A DNA stretch of 63,171 nucleotides, the filler included, from Diploschistes diacapsis (Eukaryota): NCBI GenBank assembly GCA_023645945.1. It is 9 parts of 9 records of this genome, joined end to end, with 100 filler letters (N's around TTAATTAATTAA, not from the genome) between each part and the next. Parts side by side here need not be neighbours in the genome. Positions count along the whole stretch, not along the records: positions 1 to 4,463 come from JALAIB010001703.1; 8 more parts are not named here. The stretch is one strand, 5' to 3'. Position numbers and translations under genes: made by a program. Position 1 is the first letter of the stretch. The number at the start of each line of letters is the position of its first letter. Under the pieces are notes generated by a model. That model was not told the origin of the DNA. It did no database searches and saw only the letters and a list, made by a program, of their open reading frames with translations. Shown piece by piece: positions 1 to 14,050 of the stretch.

Positions 1-2
1 CG

Positions 3-212
3 TGGGAGCTTATGGGCGGCGTGATTGCGAGGACGGTCAAGTGGCTCTATGGAGGGACGCTGAGGGAGAGGTTCAGGGATTGGTGTCGGGAGCTGAAGGG
101 GTTTTGTGAAGGGAAGGGGGAGGGGGAGGACGGTGCGGAAGGAGAGGAAGGGGATGGGGACAGAGTAGGTGGAGCAGGAAGACGGGATTCGCCGGAAGGG
201 AGAGCGGGCTAG
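3..212 (+). CDS. 3' end of a hypothetical protein, possibly SRPBCC/START (polyketide cyclase-like) fold; 5'-truncated by window edge
   Basis: Frame is open from the edge: WELMGGVIARTVKWLYGGTLRERFRDWCRELKGFCE, resembling the C-terminal helix of fungal SRPBCC proteins. Confidence 0.45.
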   Translation, partial: WELMGGVIARTVKWLYGGTLRERFRDWCRELKGFCEGKGEGEDGAEGEEGDGDRVGGAGRRDSPEGRAG

Positions 213-376
213 TAGAGGTTTGCTGGCACGTCCTCTTCGTGTGTGATAGGAAGGAGGATCTGGAGTATTGCCGATACAACCACTCGCATGGACGTGGGGA
301 ATTCCGCAACATAAGCGCATGAAGAAGTGGCGCACAGGACCAACGTGATGAAGGATTCAAGGGGGCTTTCCATAAA

Positions 377-1413
377 CTAGGCATTCTTGTCCTTTCTCTT
401 CCCAGCTCCCCATGTATGACCGAGGAACGGAATGAGGAACCGCCAAATACCGCCAGGAACCCATCGATCCAGATAGTTGCCGACGGTCACAAGCATAATA
501 CTGCTCCCAGCCCAGATCTCATTGCGATCCCACAGGTGACCCCTGCAAGTCACCAGCTGGCTCACCACCGTCTTCGCGTACTGACGCGTATCGACCCCGA
601 CCCGCTGACTGTAGACCTGCCTCTGTGCATACTGCTCCTCGAAGCCCTCCCACAAGCTGCCAGGCTTCAGGCTCCGGGTCGTGCGGGTGATGTTGCTCTT
701 CACGCCACCGGTGATGACGTTGACGACATGGACGCCGAACGGCGCGAGTTCGGTCCGAAGCGTGTCCCCGTATGAGTGCAGCGCGGCTTTCGAGGCGTTG
801 TATGTTGAGCCCCAGATCATGGGCGTGAGAGCGGCTACAGAGCCGATGTGCACGACCGTGCCGCGAGCAGCAAGGAGGAGAGGCAGGAATGTCTGGTTGA
901 TCATCATCGGGGCGAAGAGGTTGGTCGCGAATAGGGCCTGGATCTCGGGGAGGTCCAGCTCGCTTGCAGGAACGGTGTAGTCTGGCAGTGACAGGTTGTC
1001 AGCACAGCCCTCAAAGCACCTATGGCTTGGGACTTTTAATTGCACGCATATAGCACACTGGTACTAATCAATGGCTCCTCTTACTTCGTCCCGCATTGTT
1101 GACAATGAAATCAAGCCCCCCTCCGCCTACCCTCTTCTCTACCTCTGCGAAGCATGCTTTGATCGACTCGGGATCGTCCACAGTTAGGCTCAGAGCCTCG
1201 ATTCCCTTTTCCGATAGCCGCGACAGTGACTCGGCCTTCCTGGCCGTTGCAAAAACTCGAAAGCCCCGGTCGTTGAACTGGGTAGCAAGATGGGCTCCGA
1301 TACCGGGCCCAGAGCACCTGAAGAAAGGTCGTTAGCTGGGGCTGCTCGTGCAAGGTTGATGCTTAGGCGAGCTCATACCCGGTGATCAACACGGTCTTGC
1401 GCTTATCGGTCAT
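377..1413 (-). CDS. Short-chain dehydrogenase/reductase, AYR1 (1-acyl-DHAP reductase)-like; 2 introns
   Basis: Spliced start MTDKRKTVLITG|CSGPGIG (TGxxxGIG), then VFATAR and catalytic YNASK. Intron GTATGA..CAG at about 1318-1378. Confidence 0.88.
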
Positions 1414-2524
1414 GGTGAAATATATAGAAACGTAGCAGAACGACGCGAAGAGCTACTTCCGTACATCTCGGAGAGTGGTCCAGACTATTATAGTAGCTAT
1501 TCGGCCTCGGCTGCCATTGTAACCAGATATTGACAGCGGCAGGTCCATCTGTAGGAGGCTTCAGGCTAGTCTTGAAAGGTGATGGTCTGTGAGCAGGGAC
1601 GTCAAGGTCTTTTTTACCTCCTTTCAAGCTCTGCAACGATAGAGCACTTCCAACGTTCGAGTTGGCCGCATCCATCCTTCCGAGCAACAGGAACATTAAG
1701 ATACCATAGCTTAGGCGCCAATCAGGCCGTTGTTCAGACCACCTGAAGGATCATGCCCAGGCTACACTACACCCATGCCTTATCGACCAGTTATTTTAAC
1801 TTCATCTGTAATAAGCTATTTTCAAAAACATGGCTGAGGACATATTAGGGCACGGAACATATTGGATGCTTTGAGAAAGCCGTTTTACTATTTTCATGAT
1901 TTATCCAAGAGATGAAGTTGCTCCTTTAGGTGGCTAACCTTATGAGTGGACTACTTCTCTACCTCCTCCTCCATCTTGTGGGGTAGCCTTCTAGCAAAGG
2001 GAGAGAACTTTGATACGAGCTTTATTGGACCCTCTTCTACTGGTTCTCAAGGTTCATCCTGTTCATGAGCCTTCGGAGCTCTTCTATCAATGATACCCTG
2101 GCTCTGTCTGTTCATGTAGATGTATCACTCTTTGGGCGTATACTTCATTTTCTTGTCCATTCCCTACGCCTCGATGACTTTTGGAGATAACAGCATCTCT
2201 GACCACGTCTATGCCAACACCATATCTGGCGAAGAGCGATGGTCTTTCGCCTCTCATACTTTGCTAAGCTTCAGTGGTGTCAATCCACGCTACAAGGTGT
2301 GATGACTTCCCCTGACGTGGTCTGGATATACACGGTTTCAACACTCTGCAACACATGTCTAAGATGTATCAGTACGCTAAGTCTATTGTTTTCATTGTTT
2401 CTCTACGCGTTGAACATTGCTTGAATCGCCTCGTTCTCCCCTATTTAATAAGAGTAGCTGAATCCCGCCTGCTTAAAGTTGAATTGCTTCATCTGCTTCT
2501 TACAGCCCGAGAAAATCCGTCCAT

Positions 2525-3604
2525 ATGTCACCAGCGAGCTTCCCGCAAAACAGGTCCCCAAACACCATCAATCTGTGGGCTTGCAGCCGCGCCTGGGATG
2601 AAGATTCGAGACCTGTGCGCAGCGGGATTGGTGTGTGGCTTGGCCCAGTGTTCAAGCCCACCGAGCATCTGAGCGAATGGGTCGACGATCCCGGCAATAC
2701 GCACCTGCGCTCTGAGATCCAAGCCGGAATCCGTGGTCTGGAGCAAGCCCTCATCCACTACGCTCATGACATTGAGGGAAGAAACGTTGGTCAAGTCGTC
2801 ATACACACTGACTCTGCAAGTCTCGTCGATGCTGCTGTGATCTGGATCCCACAATGGCAGCCACGGTATTTGTTGACAGGGGACAAAGAAATGGCTGATA
2901 AAAAGCTGTACCAGCGCCTATCGGAACTCATCGGCATTTTCCATGTGCAAGGTGTCAAAGTGTTCTTCGACAGGATGGACCCAAGAAACATAGATACTGC
3001 GGCGGACTTGGCCGAGGCGGCGATGATTCGGGAGCTACCGTACAAGCACAACAGGGACGCTTGGGTGAGTTATTCTGCGGGTCCTAGAGGTTTAGTTCTA
3101 ATCAGCGTATCTCAGATCGTTGATCCTCTAGGACACAGTATCTGCCGTCACCGGCATTTGTTCATCCACTACCAGCCGACGCTCCTCTCCTACTTCGACA
3201 ACGCCGAGACCCTCCAGCCAAGCGGCCTGATCATGCTCGGACGCGGTAGCGTGGCGATAAACGTGTTGCTCTGTAACGGAACTACGCGCACGATCATGAT
3301 CGACGATGTATTCCACGTCCCTAACTCTCCCATAAACATTCTGTCTCCGCCTATCGCAGCGCGCCTCCGACCCGGTTTTCTCATACACGATGGGGAGGCC
3401 GTCGCTCTAGCGCAGGAAACGAACCGTCAGACGGTGCTCAAGCTGGCAAGCGGTCCACAAACTCTGTACCCAGCAACAGTCCCCCGAGAATTTAGAATGC
3501 GTATTCCATCGAAGTTCATCTTCCTCCGTGGCGAGAACGAGCCACCTCGTCTGCCGCCAATTCCACAGAATCCGCCTCCTATTGCTTACCGGCTTCAGCG
3601 CTGA
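2525..3604 (+). CDS. RNase HI-like domain fused to a Copia protease-like (Pol beta-barrel) domain; probable 51-nt in-frame intron at 3065-3115
   Basis: RNase HI pattern: GIGVWLG, THLRSEIQA, VVIHTDS, WIPQW, ADKKLYQRL, AADLAEAA. After splicing: WIVDPLGHSICRHRHLF..GRGSV..IDDVFHVPNSPINILS. Intron has GTGAGT, CTAAT and CAG. Confidence 0.65.
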   Translation: MSPASFPQNRSPNTINLWACSRAWDEDSRPVRSGIGVWLGPVFKPTEHLSEWVDDPGNTHLRSEIQAGIRGLEQALIHYAHDIEGRNVGQVVIHTDSASLVDAAVIWIPQWQPRYLLTGDKEMADKKLYQRLSELIGIFHVQGVKVFFDRMDPRNIDTAADLAEAAMIRELPYKHNRDAWVSYSAGPRGLVLISVSQIVDPLGHSICRHRHLFIHYQPTLLSYFDNAETLQPSGLIMLGRGSVAINVLLCNGTTRTIMIDDVFHVPNSPINILSPPIAARLRPGFLIHDGEAVALAQETNRQTVLKLASGPQTLYPATVPREFRMRIPSKFIFLRGENEPPRLPPIPQNPPPIAYRLQR

Positions 3605-4305
3605 TCAGCTTGCATTTTGCGGACCTCCATCGTGTATTGCCGTTGTTGTCCAGTTGTTCTGGAGGGCTTCGATCGATCAGTTTTAGTGCGTGTATGTTTT
3701 CCAGCACATCGAGCGTTTGTTAGCGTGGCGTTTGGTGAGGAAATGTTGTTTGCTCGACTAACAGCATAGATGGCTTTTCTGCCACGCAGCTCTTTTGCGA
3801 AGTAAGGTATTACTTATTGGATTAGATGCAATTTTCAACAACAACCTTTCCGTGACTCTTCATCGAGGTGGTGGTCTTTCGCAGTGCTTGAAGTTGGTTG
3901 ATGTTTCTTGCTCGCTGGCAAATGCAACAAGCTTTCCTTTGCAGCCTTTGTCACGCTATTCTGAGTCGAAGAATATCCCAATTTTGTGCTCGGCCATGTG
4001 CAGCCATTGTCCATGCATAACATCATTTCTAAAATAATCACAATTGTTACACGAATGGCATGTTAACAAAGACTCGCCATTGTGACGAACCGTGGGCCCT
4101 CGGATACTGTCACTAATACAAAATGAAGCCTCACCTCTGTTCCATTTCAGCCCCGAACATCAAACCCAGATTCCACAGCAGCACACCGAATCTTGCCTTC
4201 CTTCAGCCCGTCACCTATTTCCAGAGAAACAATCCCCTTCCGCCCCTTGGCTGACCGCGTTCAGTTCTTCCACCCCATTCAACCACCACCTACTTCAACC
4301 CCGTC

Positions 4306-4463
4306 ATGCCTTCCTTCACCACCATGACCACCACGAAATTGACACGGAGATCCGCCCCAACCTCTTCCTCAACCTCCACCTCCACAGAGCACCATCCTTC
4401 CAAACCCTCTATCCGCATCTCAACCAACATTCCCCCCTCCCCCATCACCACCACCGCCTATCC
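4306..4463 (+). CDS. Possible 5' end of a Ser/Thr-rich protein, cut by the contig end
   Basis: ATG followed by a low-complexity open frame up to the gap; no domain recognised. Confidence 0.25.
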
Positions 4464-9125: not shown

Positions 9126-10175
9126 ATAATGAGCAGTATAATCTCGATCGCTTAAAACGACCCCGAACTATTATCGAAAATTAAGAAAATAGGTTCTATC
9201 GACGCGCTAAAAGATAGCTAAACACACAATAACACGAATTACTTGAAATAACGTTTGTTAATAGAAATATTATTCGCCGAAGATTCGCCGAAATCGATCC
9301 ATTTTTTAAAAAATATCGAAAGCGTTAACGCTCTTATTTAAATCTTAAAGATATTATAAAACGTCTGAAGTACTTTAAGGTATATAAGAGCTGACGTGCC
9401 GAGGATTGGGCCAATATTTAGTAGATAAATAAATATTTAATATAGATTAATAACGGTGAGATGCGATAATGGATTTAAAAGTATTCCGGGGAGTAATGGC
9501 TGCACGAGCATATCGTTACTAAGTCTAGGAATAAGGAGAATATTATAATAATCGCTTTTATGAAGGCAGACGAGCGCGTTATGTAATATTTCTTCGACGA
9601 ATATTATATAAATAAACGAATAGCTACCGCCGAAACATATTATCGACTTTTACGCGATATTATGTCTTAAATTTACGAGCCTGGATAAGCTTTTTTGTAA
9701 AATAATGCCTTTATATATACAGTTAATAGTATTAAAGTACTTTTAAAAGAATTAAACGTCTAAACGCTCGATCATTTCCCTTATAACCCGGATCTGAACC
9801 CTATCGAGCATCTATGGCCTATATTTAAAGAAAGGGTTTTAAAACTTTATCCAAAATTTAAAATTATGCGCGGGGGTAAGGAGAAGAAGATAGAAATTTT
9901 GAAAGTAATAATTCGAGACGTTTTTGGAGTGCTTTTGAAAGATAGGAAATAAGATTTACTTGCTAGATTAATGCATTTTATATCGAAGCGAATAGAGGCT
10001 TGTATCGACGCGCAAGGATAACAAACTAAATATTAATATAATCTATTATTTAAGAGCTTTAAAATGATTTACTTTGCGCATTCATTAAAGCTTTATTAAG
10101 TGCGCAATAGCTCAATAAAGTTGGTAGGTGGTATTTGTTTATTTGATACCTAACTACTTTTGGCACGTGATTGTA
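9126..10175 (+). mobile_element. RIP-degraded Tc1/mariner (DDE_3-type) DNA transposon, 3' part with right TIR and TA target site
   Basis: Remnant motifs F-*NNA (QDNA-like), FPYNPDLNPIEHLW near 9775-9817, and RIEACIDAQG*QTKY*. The TIR read on the minus strand is CAATCACGTGCCAAAAGTAGTTAGG, ending at 10173 followed by TA. Confidence 0.85.
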
Positions 10176-11740
10176 AATCCGCCGTTAAACGGGAAACTTA
10201 CCGGCACGGCCCCGATTTAATTAATATACGAACCGATATCGGTTCCCAAATACACGAAACGCGGGTATAAATTACGTATATTTATAAATTATAACACACA
10301 ACGATTTTAAGGATTAAACATATTAATAAAATAAATCCTTTTATTCCTTAATAATTCTTTATAACTCGTATAATTTTTATATCTTTTTTACTTCTTTATC
10401 TTTAGATATAATTTAAATAAATTAACAATCTTTTAAATAAAATCATTATAAAAAACTTTTTAAAAGCATTTCTACCCCGTTTGGTATATATATATCCCGC
10501 GATGGAACTCCGAAAGGCTAACGATCGATACTAATAAGAAACGATCTAGTTTTAGTCGGAAATTTTCTTTATGGTTTGCTATTTAACCTATACTCGGAAC
10601 CTAGTGACTGCTAAAGTAATACCTATCTGGCCCCCTTATTCTGGCCTTTCTCTTAAAAGATCTGCTTATACTGCCTGCTCGGTTCCGAGAGCAAAACGGG
10701 TTTGCGAGCTCGTAAATCTCTTCTGTTTAATAGATTAAAGATTTTGTTTATTAATGATGTCTGATAGGTACTTAATTTCTTTATCTCGGAGTTGCGCCGG
10801 CTTATACTCGACGCTTAATTCGTTTACGATCAGAACGTGTTTGTTTCTGTAGATTTTTTAGCTCGATTCGGCGTATGGAGAACGGGTTTAGACCGTTATC
10901 TAGCTCGAGAAAGCATTTACGGGGCTAATAGGCTTATCGATGCGTAAATATGCTAAATATTTAAGCGATTATAGCGCTAATATAGTAATTTAGGTCCCGG
11001 AATGTCCTCGATTATCAATATTTACGCCTACATGAAACGCGGGTCGCGAACGATGTTTTTACGGATTAAATTATTAGTTTGAAACGGATAACTTATTAAT
11101 TAGATAATTTAAACTTATTTAAGGCTATTCGTAGCTATCGCGACTCGTCCGTATCGACGCCGGCTCTTATATTTCATAAATCTATCGTTGGTTTTCTTAC
11201 GTTTTTTTACGCTTCTTTTGATTCGGAATTCCTTTATATTAGCTTAATCTCGTTTGCCGCGTCCGCTCGTTTTCCGCTTATAACTCGTACAGAACCCGTA
11301 ACTGCCTTATTTGATGCTAAATCTATCAGTTCTGAAACGATAATCGAAATTCATATTAACGATCTTTTCGCGTTCCTTTTCGGTTTCGTCTCGGTTTTTA
11401 ATCGCTTGTTACGTTCCGCTAATTTTGTATAAAGTTCCGGTAAGCCCATTTTATTAAGAAAATCTCTTTAATTAATATTGTCGAGTAATATTTAAAATAA
11501 GTACGTTTAGTTCGAGCCGGGCCTCGACGTCGAAATAATTATAAGAAAAGGAGTATACGGAATTCATAAGATTTAAACGATTTAGCTCGGCGGCTGCAGC
11601 ACGGGTTGACGCCGGTTAAGAAACGGAATAAAACGGAAGAAGAAGGGTTAGAAGAGGAACCGGAACGGGCTCGAAAAGTTATAAGAAAGGATACTCGATT
11701 ATTTGAACAATGGGGTTCGGTATATTTATATTTTTTTAAA
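10176..11740. repeat. Unclassified RIP-degraded repeat; may include the 3' LTR of the adjacent Gypsy element
   Basis: AT- and TpA-rich, no ORFs, lies between two TE remnants. Confidence 0.45.
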
Positions 11741-11829
11741 AAGTTTTGTATGTATATTTAGGTTTATTAATAATATCTTTAGATAGCTTTTATAGACATA
11801 AATAAGATCATATTTATCTCTTTTTTAAT

Positions 11830-13583
11830 CTACTCTTTTTGGGCTACGAGTGATATTTATTATAATCATCGATTAAATTTTAAGATTCTTGTAGGTCCTT
11901 AATTTTGATTTATGAATTATATTTATCTGGCCAGCTTAGTTATTTTATATAGTATTATATAATGTCCTTTTCTTTTGTTCTGTCTAGTAATTTCTCGACC
12001 TCCTATTCTTGTTAATCATTTATTAATTCTGGTAGCGGTATTAGCCTATTTTCAGGATCATTATTTCTGGCTTTGTATGATTTAAGCAACGAAATATGGA
12101 ATACCGGATGTAATCCTGAATATTCTTTCGGTAGTACCAACCGGTAAACCTGTAAGCGTGTTGCGTTAATGATGCGGAACGGGCCAATGAATTTATGGGA
12201 TAGTTTTTTGCTAGGTTGTTTAAGATGTAGATTCTTTATAAATAATATTACGAGTTTTCCGATTATGTATGTATGAGGTAAATGTTTCTGATCGAAATAT
12301 TTCTTTTATTACTTCTGAGTATGTTTGATATTCTTTATAAGTTAAACTCGTGCGGTTTATATGCGATCAATCTTCGTTTAAATAACGGATATTTTTCTTT
12401 CGTCGGTTTCGATCTCGAAGCTAAAATAGACTTATGATTCGTAATCGTAGCACGTATAAAATAGGATTATTTTGATCGTTGAATTATACGTAGAATTATA
12501 TGAAAATTTTGTTAATAATAATAGTTTTAATTAATCATTTTAGCCTTCGTAGTAAAATATACGGAGATAATGTTTCAGCGTCTGATTTTGACGCTCTATC
12601 TACCCGTTAGATTACGGGTGGAAAGTGGTGTTTAAGCGCTATCTGGCCTGTATGGCACGATAAAATTGAGATCAATATTGATTCGTCAAGATTAGCTCCC
12701 GATCGGATATAATGCCTTTTAGGGCGCTATATTTCAAAATTACGTCTCGTAAGACTACCGTCGCCAACCCGTCGGACGTTAAGGATTTAATTATGGTAAT
12801 ATATTTTATCATTTTGGTATACCTATCTATTATTACTAAGATAGTATTTATAACCCCTATTGTATTCCTGCTGGGGGGTAATCCCGTGATAAAATCTAAT
12901 GTGATCTCCTGTTAGGGTGCGGACGGTGGCCGGAGGGAATATAGCGTGCTATACGGCTTGTGCCGGGGGACTTTTACCCGTTGGTAGATATCATAGCTGT
13001 TGATATATTTATTGATATATTTTTTTATGTTTTCTTAATAGAATTTTCGGGTTAAAAGCTCGTGGGTACGTTTTACGCCATAATAATTTAATAATTCATA
13101 ATCGTAGGCTAGCCGTAGTAGCTTCGATCTAATATCGTCGTTTTTTGAAACATATATACGGTTTTTATAATAAAGTGTAAAGGTTAATACTACAGTGTGA
13201 CAATAAGGCAGATAAGTGGCTATTCGGTAGCTAGGTTTCTGCTAGACGATAGATGTATTGATGAAATAATTTCTGAAGAACTATCTCTATCTGCGAAAAC
13301 TTTATTCTTATATAAGAACACGCTAGCGGGCCTTAGTATATACTTGACATATCTTTTAATAGCCCCTTATTGGGTTCTGCGTATTATAATTACTTTTTCC
13401 TTTCCTAAACTTTATCCTTAGAGCGTTTAACCCTCGTAACGTACCTTTATTGTCAGTTATACGATAACAGATTTTTAATGTATCGTCAATTTTTTGTGTT
13501 CTAATGATATTAATTATTAATATATAGTTCTATTTAATATTTATTAATTCCTAACTAGCGCGTCGACGGCGAGTCGTTAATAT
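11830..13583 (-). mobile_element. RIP-degraded Ty3/Gypsy chromovirus pol (integrase plus chromodomain)
   Basis: Minus-strand motifs: P*QEITLDFITGLP, RLNTTFHP*SNG*IERQNQ, PSKKLSHKFIGPFRII, LHPVFHISLLK and the chromodomain YYIK*LSWPDKYNS*I. Confidence 0.92.
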
Positions 13584-13683
13584 NNNNNNNNNNNNNNNNN
13601 NNNNNNNNNNNNNNNNNNNNNNNNNNNTTAATTAATTAANNNNNNNNNNNNNNNNNNNNNNNNNNNNNNNNNNNNNNNNNNNN
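13584..13683. other. Artificial contig-joining spacer
   Basis: N44-TTAATTAATTAA-N44. Confidence 0.99.
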
Positions 13684-14050
13684 AATATAAACGATATAAA
13701 AAAGCCGGTTTATATAAAACGTATAATCTATCGTATTAATATCTTTTTTTTAAGATTTAAAAGAATTTAACTCGATTCGTGATTATTAGAACGTGATTAT
13801 ATCTTAATAAATCGACGTATAATAATTAAACGAGGAACTTTAAATACGCGAACAACTTCTCGAACGTTAATAAACTTAATATATTATTAAAAATTTAAAG
13901 CATTAATATAATCGTTCATGTTAATTCTAATAAGATTGAATCGGTATTATGCGACGTAGCCATTATTAAAAAAATCGAAGAAAAAGACGAAAGTTATAAT
14001 GAGAGGTGGCCCACTTCTAGGGATGGCCCACTTCCCCGTCAAACACGTTA
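13684..14050. mobile_element. RIP-degraded end of a pogo/Fot1-like DNA transposon
   Basis: Terminus on the minus strand reads TA-ACGTGTTTGACGGGGAAGTGGGCCATCCCTAGAAGTGGGCCA, with the internal direct repeat typical of Fot1-family TIRs; body is AT-rich. Confidence 0.65.

Follow-up and report, generated by a model that had tools for sequence, protein, structure and literature searches.

RNase H enzymes and the proteases of retroelements are the closest described relatives of the gene discussed here. In RNase H enzymes the first aspartate of the active site is essential, and retropepsins are dimers. The cellular protein Ddi1 is not of the Copia type and has retained its catalytic Asp; Ty1 p22, a truncated Gag, and mouse Fv1 are retroelement-derived restriction or decoy proteins. 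The host genes known to us that were built from retroelement parts are derivatives of capsid, envelope, integrase or Ty3-type protease. The Pfam family Pol_BBD (PF22936) we take to be the aspartic protease region of Copia elements (MEROPS family A11), and position 4 of its profile is, on the same assumption, the Asp of the Copia protease signature D-S/T-G. The gene in question lies at positions 2525 to 3604, on the plus strand, of a stretch of 63,171 nucleotides (the window, filler included) from the genome assembly of the lichen-associated fungus Diploschistes diacapsis (GCA_023645945.1), and it joins an RNase H1-type domain to a Copia-protease-like barrel. The best of the sequencing runs that contain the locus is labelled a lichen metagenome, and the others include a rock metagenome and organisms given as codes. 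We favor, with a probability of roughly 0.55, the view that this is a real, low-copy, two-exon fungal protein-coding gene and not a fragment of a transposable element, and that its product is a double pseudoenzyme that acts by binding.

The exons, the intron and the stretches on which the argument turns are given below. By "window clade" we mean the window protein together with its close relatives at 52–68% identity.

2525–3064, plus strand: exon 1, Met1–Trp180, with the RNase H1-type domain at about residues 12–170 (open reading frame, Pfam, AlphaFold2 and Foldseek)
2570–2587, plus strand: NLWACS, with the first catalytic Asp missing; relatives read DGAC here (motif table and alignment A1)
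2708–2725, plus strand: RSEIQA, catalytic Glu kept, the preceding N-Q replaced by H-L (aligned to TNQRAEI of human RNase H1)
2804–2821, plus strand: HTDSAS, second catalytic Asp kept (D96, nearly invariant in A1 and invariant in A2)
2843–2905, plus strand: remodelled region WIPQWQPRY...MADKK, as against W.P.WK.NGY...V.N in relatives (opposite WKKNGW of human RNase H1 in the alignment)
2906–2968, plus strand: LYQRLSELIGIFHVQGVKVFF, the block best conserved in the window clade (invariant columns of A3)
2996–3022, plus strand: TAADLAEAA, with Ala aligned to the last catalytic Asp and an Asp one residue later (AADLA as against RADALA)
3065–3115, plus strand: predicted intron of 51 nt, in frame and free of stops (GTGAGT donor, CTAAT branch-like site, CAG acceptor)
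3116–3604, plus strand: exon 2 including the stop codon, encoding the Copia-protease-like barrel and a conserved tail (Pfam Pol_BBD)
3116–3145, plus strand: IVDPLGHSIC, in the place of the protease D-S/T-G signature, here D-P-L (the profile starts with the W that precedes the intron)
3236–3346, plus strand: LGRGSV ... DDVFHVPNSPINILS, the conserved G-x-G and HVP..N.LS blocks of the barrel (A5, A7)
3434–3472, plus strand: VLKLASGPQTLYP, a family-wide conserved block past the Pfam profile (A1, A7)
3527–3589, plus strand: RGENEPPRLPPIPQNPPPIAY, a proline-rich tail conserved only in the window clade (A1, A7)

An exhaustive single-sequence phmmer search of 1.84 billion representative proteins (E ≤1e-3) returned 40 hits. 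The close clade consists of P0002, which has both halves, and the fragments P0003–P0007, to which word-indexed protein searches added P0044–P0046; these searches contributed only such close-clade fragments and no longer fused forms. At 23–29% identity there are eight distant two-domain proteins (P0008–P0015, 269–335 residues), which carry both domains in one uninterrupted open reading frame (ORF) and align to the window protein across both halves (E 2e-18 to 4e-7). All eight pass both Pfam cut-offs, with 39–77 bits for RNase_H and 32–50 bits for Pol_BBD (E down to 4e-13). This establishes a small RNase_H plus Pol_BBD family and excludes a chance Pfam match. The search for further proteins of this architecture, which the initial annotation had proposed, thus shows that the fusion is not private to the window gene and belongs to an older family. 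The other phmmer hits are RNase H-only proteins of 108–660 residues, some with a Cauli_VI domain, and the gag-type protein P0029. No match to RVT_1, RVT_2 or rve was found in any of the 23 hits scanned, and none of the 40 hits is longer than 660 residues; rows for PF13456, named "RVT_3", we take to denote an RNase H-like family despite the name.

A cluster look-up of ten proteins traced nine to metagenome assemblies of ENA or Logan and one to a Trinity transcript, and none of the family members looked up bears a functional name or has an accession in NCBI or UniProt. P0014 (306 residues) and its isoform P0050 (353 residues) are Trinity transcripts from the EukProt set labelled Protostelium nocturnum. 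As P0014 is a Trinity transcript, the fused form is transcribed somewhere, and the family may reach beyond fungi, unless this amoebozoan-labelled transcript is a contaminant. Scanning the JGI metagenomes with the clade alignment A3 gave 213 pattern matches and no relative, and with the distant alignment A6 it gave 75 loci that match the RNase H part only; tblastn of eight C-terminal halves against those 75 loci produced no hit. The viral contigs yielded 25 pattern matches, none of them a relative, the prokaryote genomes a single weak locus that covers query residues 5–53 only, and an ESM Atlas search with P0009 no usable hit. The RNase_H plus Pol_BBD family is rare, and known from metagenome assemblies and one transcriptome only.

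The gene model is simple. An open frame extends from 2483 to the stop codon at 3602–3604, and the ATG at 2525 provides a start Met that lines up with the N-termini of P0003, P0005 and P0044. Read without splicing, the frame encodes 359 residues; the predicted spliced product has 342, and its 1026 coding bases stay open with intact splice signals. The composition of the gene (GC 0.55, GC at third codon positions 0.63, TpA/ApT 0.57, (CpA+TpG)/(ApC+GpT) 1.22) carries no signature of repeat-induced point mutation (RIP) by the thresholds that we assume to apply. Both the intact ORF free of RIP and the canonical 51-nt intron inside the W|IVD motif, as the initial annotation had described them, were recovered.

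The intron falls one residue into the Pol_BBD profile, whose position 1 is the W of W|IVDPLG, and its CTAAT sits 13–17 bases before the intron end. In all seven close relatives the junction reads W-V-S or W-V-C, as a GTNAGY or GTNTGY donor would if translated, and in six of these seven the ORF ends 0–15 codons past the junction. P0046 is a separate ORF that starts at the exon 2 homologue, and its recorded contig has the same size as that of P0004; P0002 reads through an unrelated insert of 16 residues at the junction. The junction residues, the ORF stops and the separate exon 2 ORF together support a conserved intron. Run X4 differs from the window at 4 of the 51 intron bases and at 10 of the 623 exon bases that it covers (Fisher p 0.017), so that the intron, at 7.8% and near the synonymous divergence of 6.3%, diverges about five times faster than the exons at 1.6%. 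No splice joint was seen in the contigs of the four other runs that cover the locus, all of which are DNA.

These four runs cover the locus at 95–99% identity, and the X2 contig is collinear with the window over 2300–3782, with 18 differences. We calculated the ratio of non-synonymous to synonymous changes per site (pN/pS) with Nei-Gojobori-type site counts from these variants, which are population or near-species variants and not an orthologue codon alignment. The counts, taken among the differences listed, are 7 synonymous and 4 non-synonymous for X2 (pN/pS 0.18, p 0.005), 9 and 1 for X4 (pN/pS 0.03, p 1.5e-5) and 1 and 1 for X5 (pN/pS 0.30, p 0.41). Pooled over all four runs, the unique changes comprise 15 synonymous and 9 non-synonymous ones (pN/pS 0.19, p 5.6e-5), where some contigs have a depth of only 2–5 and some variants are common to several runs. 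The coding sequence is under purifying selection, and this measure, in place of the dN/dS that the initial annotation had called for, favors a maintained gene.

For the amino-terminal half, the RNase HI pattern noted at the outset is well founded. Pfam RNase_H (PF00075) matches residues 47–137 with E 1.9e-4. An AlphaFold2 model, made for the unspliced protein on an alignment of 10 sequences, has a mean predicted local distance difference test (pLDDT) score of 70 and a predicted template modelling score of 0.73; pLDDT is mostly 70–90 over residues 11–170 and drops below 50 in the intron-encoded stretch 184–202. Foldseek matches the RNase H fold to the catalytic domain of human RNase H1 (E 1.3e-9, TMt 0.75–0.81), followed by E. 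coli RNase HI, at E 5e-8 and weaker, and by other RNase H chains. The alignment of the family profile to human RNase H1 spans the whole domain (E 1.6e-23); the retroviral RNase H rows reach only 2e-9 to 2e-5. Because the nearest relatives are stand-alone RNases H and RNases H1 with a Cauli_VI domain, and because the best solved match is human RNase H1, this half looks cellular in type and not retroelement-derived; only the carboxy-terminal half looks Copia-like. The proposed retroelement origin fits the latter half and not the former.

The distant members show the catalytic pattern D(GAC), (A)E(L), D(S), (A)D(xLA). Five of the seven that cover all four sites have the complete D-E-D-D tetrad (P0010 is truncated); the exceptions are P0012, whose fourth site is N, and P0015, where the first site is S and the fourth is N. 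From their sequences, the members with an intact tetrad are presumably nucleases. The window protein lacks the tetrad, with Leu for the first Asp and Ala for the last, and every close-clade sequence that covers the sites has likewise lost both. At the first site the four covering window-clade sequences have Leu, Ile or Val (LWAC, IWAC, VWCA, VCTC), compared with Asp in six of the seven distant members that cover it. The loss of the first Asp had been recognized early on; the proposed exchange of DG for ACS did not hold up, as the register is DGAC to LWAC, that is, D to L and G to W. The Glu of RSEI and the Asp of TDS are retained, as had been stated, in 5/5 and 6/6 window-clade sequences, respectively. 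The loss of the last Asp is also clear: the aligned residue is Ala or Val in 6/6 window-clade sequences, Ala in the window protein, with an Asp one residue later. This shifted Asp (ADLA) occurs in six of eight clade members and is missing from P0005 and P0045, which read AAALA. The window clade has also lost the His upstream of the last catalytic position.

Further changes of the window clade fall in the TNQRAEI, WKKNGW and VINKEDF segments of human RNase H1, according to the alignment: T-N-Q-x-A-E has become T/S-x-L-R-S-E, the Asn of V-x-N is Asp in 6/6, and W-K-x-N-G-Y is W-Q-P-x-Y in 5/6. We take these positions to be RNA/DNA hybrid contacts and part of the basic protrusion. The idea of a binder of nucleic acid hybrids is weakened by these exchanges (TNQ to T/S-x-L, V-x-N to M-x-D, WKxNGY to WQPxY), and both Trp of WIPQW are retained in the window protein. 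An Asp in the loop after strand 1 (W/R-D; RAWDED, residues 22–27, window 2588–2605) is found in 5/5 close-clade sequences, and the distant members have N-G there; this residue might act as an acidic substitute or belong to a new surface.

The carboxy-terminal half follows the Copia protease pattern with DSG changed to DPL, as originally read: Pol_BBD matches exon 2 with E 8.8e-6, starting at W|IVDPLG. The residues G42, G44, V65, P69 and N74 are invariant or nearly so in A5 and A7. The catalytic D-S/T-G is lacking, with D-P-L in the window protein and S-S-G in P0002. At the position of the protease Asp there is Ala or Ser in 8/8 distant members, Ser in P0002, and Asp, followed by Pro-Leu, in the window protein. 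The absence of the catalytic Asp from every distant member indicates that the barrel is a non-catalytic module throughout the family. Both active sites of the window protein are thus incomplete, as proposed initially, with the first and last Asp of the RNase H tetrad lost and D-P-L in the barrel, and for this reason the protein probably binds rather than cuts. The proline-rich tail is present in all four close-clade C-terminal halves (window, P0002, P0007, P0046) and absent from the distant members.

A link to Copia comes from P0029, a protein of 469 residues with Retrotran_gag_2, a CCHC knuckle read from the sequence, and two tandem Pol_BBD copies. The barrel aligns to it by hhalign with a probability of 86% (E 5e-6), and this alignment, together with the domain order of P0029, places the barrel domain directly after a Copia-type Gag, where the Copia protease lies. 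Both Pol_BBD copies of P0029 are themselves without the signature Asp (W-T-I-S-I-A-T and W-C-F-S-S-A-T), so that it is another protein with dead Copia-protease-like barrels. A homodimer prediction for the barrel (A7, two copies) gave a score of 0.00 with an uncertain partner fold and the alignment unused, and is evidence neither way. Separately, a 325-base X3 contig matches window 3166–3207, 42 bases only, with 8 mismatches and unrelated GC-rich sequence on either side, which probably reflects chance or foreign DNA rather than a paralogue.

The maximum-likelihood tree was built from 20 RNase H-containing sequences, with the N-terminal halves of the window clade and the full-length distant proteins, and was rooted at the midpoint. 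The window clade has a stem of 1.82 changes per column (support 100/100) and internal branches of 0.11–0.42; the distant two-domain clade has a stem of 0.47 (support 95/98). A long stem followed by short branches fits a burst of substitutions around the loss of the active site and renewed constraint thereafter. A common origin of the fusion is suggested by the shared C-terminal half and not by the tree.

The surroundings of the gene can be judged only within one contig, since the window consists of nine contigs (4463, 4462, 4458, 4456, 4442, 4439, 4435, 26782 and 4434 bases) joined by spacers, and hence only positions 1–4463 are physically linked to the gene. The protein database, too, lists a contig of 4463 bases for the window protein. 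The remaining features are the following.

377–1063 and 1068–1331, minus strand: two-exon short-chain dehydrogenase (SDR) gene (adh_short E 2.5e-21 for the larger exon)
about 4307–4463, plus strand: first part of an ORF rich in Pro, Ser and Thr (MPSFTTMTTTKL...), cut off by the contig end
4464–4563, 9026–9125, 13584–13683, 18140–18239, 22682–22781, 27221–27320, 31756–31855 and 58638–58737: spacers (44 N + TTAATTAATTAA + 44 N)

The SDR gene lies in divergent orientation about 1.2 kb upstream; it is the sole other recognizable gene on the 4463-base contig and provides the only other Pfam match there. In agreement with the initial annotation, Pfam and repeat searches of this contig revealed no reverse transcriptase (RT), integrase, gag or long terminal repeat (LTR), as would mark a Ty1/Copia LTR retrotransposon, and no direct repeat of at least 20 nt brackets the gene. 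There is no second copy of the gene in the 63-kb window. Relatives are embedded in contigs of 14–83 kb (83 kb for P0044, 47 kb for P0002, 27 kb for P0010, 22 kb for P0013 and 15 kb for P0009 among them), each seen on 1–2 contigs. Neighbors across spacers are not real neighbors, and the pieces may derive from more than one organism; the use of ordinary genes beyond 4463 as gene-rich context was rejected, since they lie on other contigs. An AT-rich, RIP-like stretch (GC 0.33, TpA/ApT 1.10, (CpA+TpG)/(ApC+GpT) 0.62) occupies window 10001–14000, on two other pieces.

Several observations weigh against a selected double pseudoenzyme with a Copia-like barrel. Both Pfam matches of the window protein stay below the cut-offs, with 22.1 bits for RNase_H (cut-off 25.8) and, for Pol_BBD (cut-off 27), 26.4 bits with exon 2 and 24.9 bits with the whole protein as query. 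The equation of Pol_BBD with the Copia protease rests on the assumption stated at the outset and on its place after gag and CCHC in P0029. Of the two fold checks that had been suggested, the one for the N-terminal half confirmed RNase H, and the one for the C-terminal half produced no significant structural match. The AlphaFold2 model of this half alone is mostly beta (pLDDT 65); Foldseek found nothing significant for it in PDB (best E 0.43) or in BFVD (best E 0.34), where a caulimovirid polyprotein at rank 3 (probability 0.60, E 0.47) is not significant either. VIA-align placed the retropepsin-like domain of Ddi1 at the top of 48,161 chains with a weak Z of 2.4, and the sequence profile of the C-terminal half found no relative among solved structures, all rows falling at profile positions up to 165. 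The Copia assignment of the C-terminal half therefore rests on sequence and not on fold, and any link to Copia elements in vivo is purely inferred. Among the runs that contain the locus there is no RNA run for the gene or its intron. Run X3 taken alone (3 synonymous and 4 non-synonymous changes, pN/pS 0.44, p 0.24) is not significant, and four further differences were left out of the pN/pS counts. The tree leaves the sister relation between the window clade and the distant two-domain clade unresolved. The absence of mobile-element features applies to about 2 kb on each side of the gene, the extent of the contig. Finally, the loop Asp after strand 1 and the shifted ADLA Asp make a remodelled active site possible, judging from the sequences.

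This last point leads to a rival explanation, according to which the RNase H half still functions, as a nuclease or as a hybrid binder, tethered by the barrel, with a remodelled active site in which the retained Glu and Asp are complemented by the loop Asp and the shifted Asp. The two retained residues are indeed invariant in the clade, the loop Asp occurs in all five sequences and the shifted one in six of eight, the RNase H fold is confidently predicted over most of the domain (pLDDT 80–90), and both Trp of WIPQW are kept. However, the first Asp, the essential one, is now Leu, Ile or Val, P0005 and P0045 lack even the shifted Asp, and the presumed hybrid contacts have changed together (N-Q to x-L, N to D, loss of the Lys and the Asn-Gly of WKxNGY). 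As the long stem branch also fits a release from catalytic constraint, we regard a remodelled enzyme as quite unlikely. That the gene is a non-functional relic, decaying and open only for lack of time, is very improbable indeed. The broken catalytic sites, the want of an RNA run among those containing the locus and the Pfam scores under the cut-offs would all suit a relic; yet it would have to have kept 1026 coding bases open and its splice signals intact, with a pN/pS of 0.19 (p 5.6e-5), and of 0.03 in X4, and an intron that diverges about five times faster than the exons, while clade members at 52–68% identity have kept their open frames, the junction and the conserved blocks.

The gene might also be an accessory ORF or a stranded piece of an unrecognized mobile element, for example a non-autonomous Copia derivative with a captured RNase H, in which case its conservation would reflect selection on the element. 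The homology of the C-terminal half to a Copia gag-pol region speaks for this explanation, and so does the patchy distribution of the family in metagenome assemblies and one transcriptome. LTRs could lie off the ends of the short 4463-base contig, and the occurrence on one contig is weak evidence for a single copy, since metagenome assemblers collapse repeats. Nevertheless, we consider a mobile element unlikely. The contig is devoid of RT, integrase, gag and terminal repeats, and has an ordinary SDR gene 1.2 kb upstream; the position of a spliceosomal intron is conserved across the clade; the relatives lie inside contigs of 14–83 kb, each on 1–2 contigs; the gene shows no RIP signature, in contrast to other pieces of the window; and pN/pS is 0.19. 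Two further candidates were rejected, namely a rearranged Copia pol, on account of the cellular-type RNase H and the lack of RT and integrase, and a chance ORF, on account of the homologues and of pN/pS.

If the gene does encode a double pseudoenzyme, the following model can be proposed. The barrel would have been recruited as a non-catalytic module for binding or dimerization, and in the ancestral protein it would have brought an RNase H to a partner. By analogy with the dimeric retropepsins, the barrel is most likely a protein-protein interaction or dimerization module. In the window clade, a burst of substitutions would then have cost the protein the first catalytic Asp, the last one, the His and the residues at the conserved RNase H1 motif positions, after which it would have come back under purifying selection. 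With nuclease activity and hybrid contacts given up, it might now serve as a scaffold or decoy. Surfaces conserved in the clade are LYxRLSELIGIFHVQGIKV, WQPxY and, in 4/4 sequences, EPPRLPPIP of the tail; this conservation of clade-specific surfaces and tail suggests protein partners. In the mechanism that we prefer, the dead barrel might pair either with itself or with the protease part of a Copia Gag or Gag-Pol; this would make the family an adaptor directed at retroelements, and the window clade its nuclease-free decoy form. Pairing with a Copia Gag-protease is plausible by analogy, if rather doubtful. The most far-reaching version of this model, in our view a long shot, is that the family constitutes an unrecognized eukaryotic anti-Copia system, in which the dead protease heterodimerizes with Gag-protease or Gag-Pol and carries an RNase H1 into assembling Copia particles, where it destroys RNA/DNA intermediates, and that the lichen-fungus clade, having shed the nuclease, acts as a dominant-negative poison of protease dimerization.

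Judged mainly from titles, the literature searched yielded no description of a fusion between RNase H1 and a Copia-type protease barrel, and no paper that names PF22936; the Pol_BBD papers listed are, by title, plant papers. The passages of PMC3985635 on protease, peptidase, RNase H1, inactive and fungi do not describe the fusion architecture. The family would thus be new to the sources searched, as a host protein that combines a retroelement-derived domain with a pseudoenzyme, both of which are known themes. Its nuclease-intact members and a clade that has lost the site under selection form a natural series, through which the role of the barrel can be put to a direct test. Should Copia Gag-protease be the target of the barrel, the family would represent a new form of transposon control; otherwise, a clean double pseudoenzyme under selection would still remain.

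Compared with human RNASEH1 (PDB 2qk9, 2qkb, 2qkk), the window protein has the same fold, and the profile aligns over the whole domain, including the stretch W..WK.NGW.., which we take to be the basic protrusion; the distant members also keep D-E-D-D. In contrast to cellular RNase H1, the window protein has no N-terminal hybrid-binding domain (Cauli_VI) and carries a barrel at the C-terminus instead, and its clade has lost the first Asp, the last Asp and the His, as well as N-Q and N at the motif positions. With the protease region of Ty1/Copia (Pseudoviridae) Gag-Pol the barrel shares the pattern W-I-x-[D]-x-x-..H-M/I-C..F..G-x-G-x-V..V-x-H-V-P..N-L-x-S. Unlike the Ty1/Copia protease, however, the barrel of the family lacks the catalytic D-S/T-G, is neither preceded by gag nor followed by integrase and RT, comes after an RNase H domain, and is extended past the Pfam profile by a family-specific block, VLQL..GP..LYP. 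As the catalytic residues are incomplete in both halves and the Pfam cut-offs are narrowly missed, we file the protein as a divergent relative and not as a working member of either enzyme family. Genes of the Ddi1 type, with their RVP domain, place a retroelement-type protease fold in a cellular multidomain protein, as the window gene may do, but the structural match to Ddi1 (Z 2.4, root-mean-square deviation 4.7 over 88 residues) is not significant, and there is no similarity in sequence. What the window protein may share with Ty1 p22 and Fv1 is a concept, by analogy only: a piece of a retroelement kept by the host could block assembly by co-assembly. In contrast to these two, the piece kept here stems from a protease and not from a capsid protein, and a cellular nuclease domain is joined to it.

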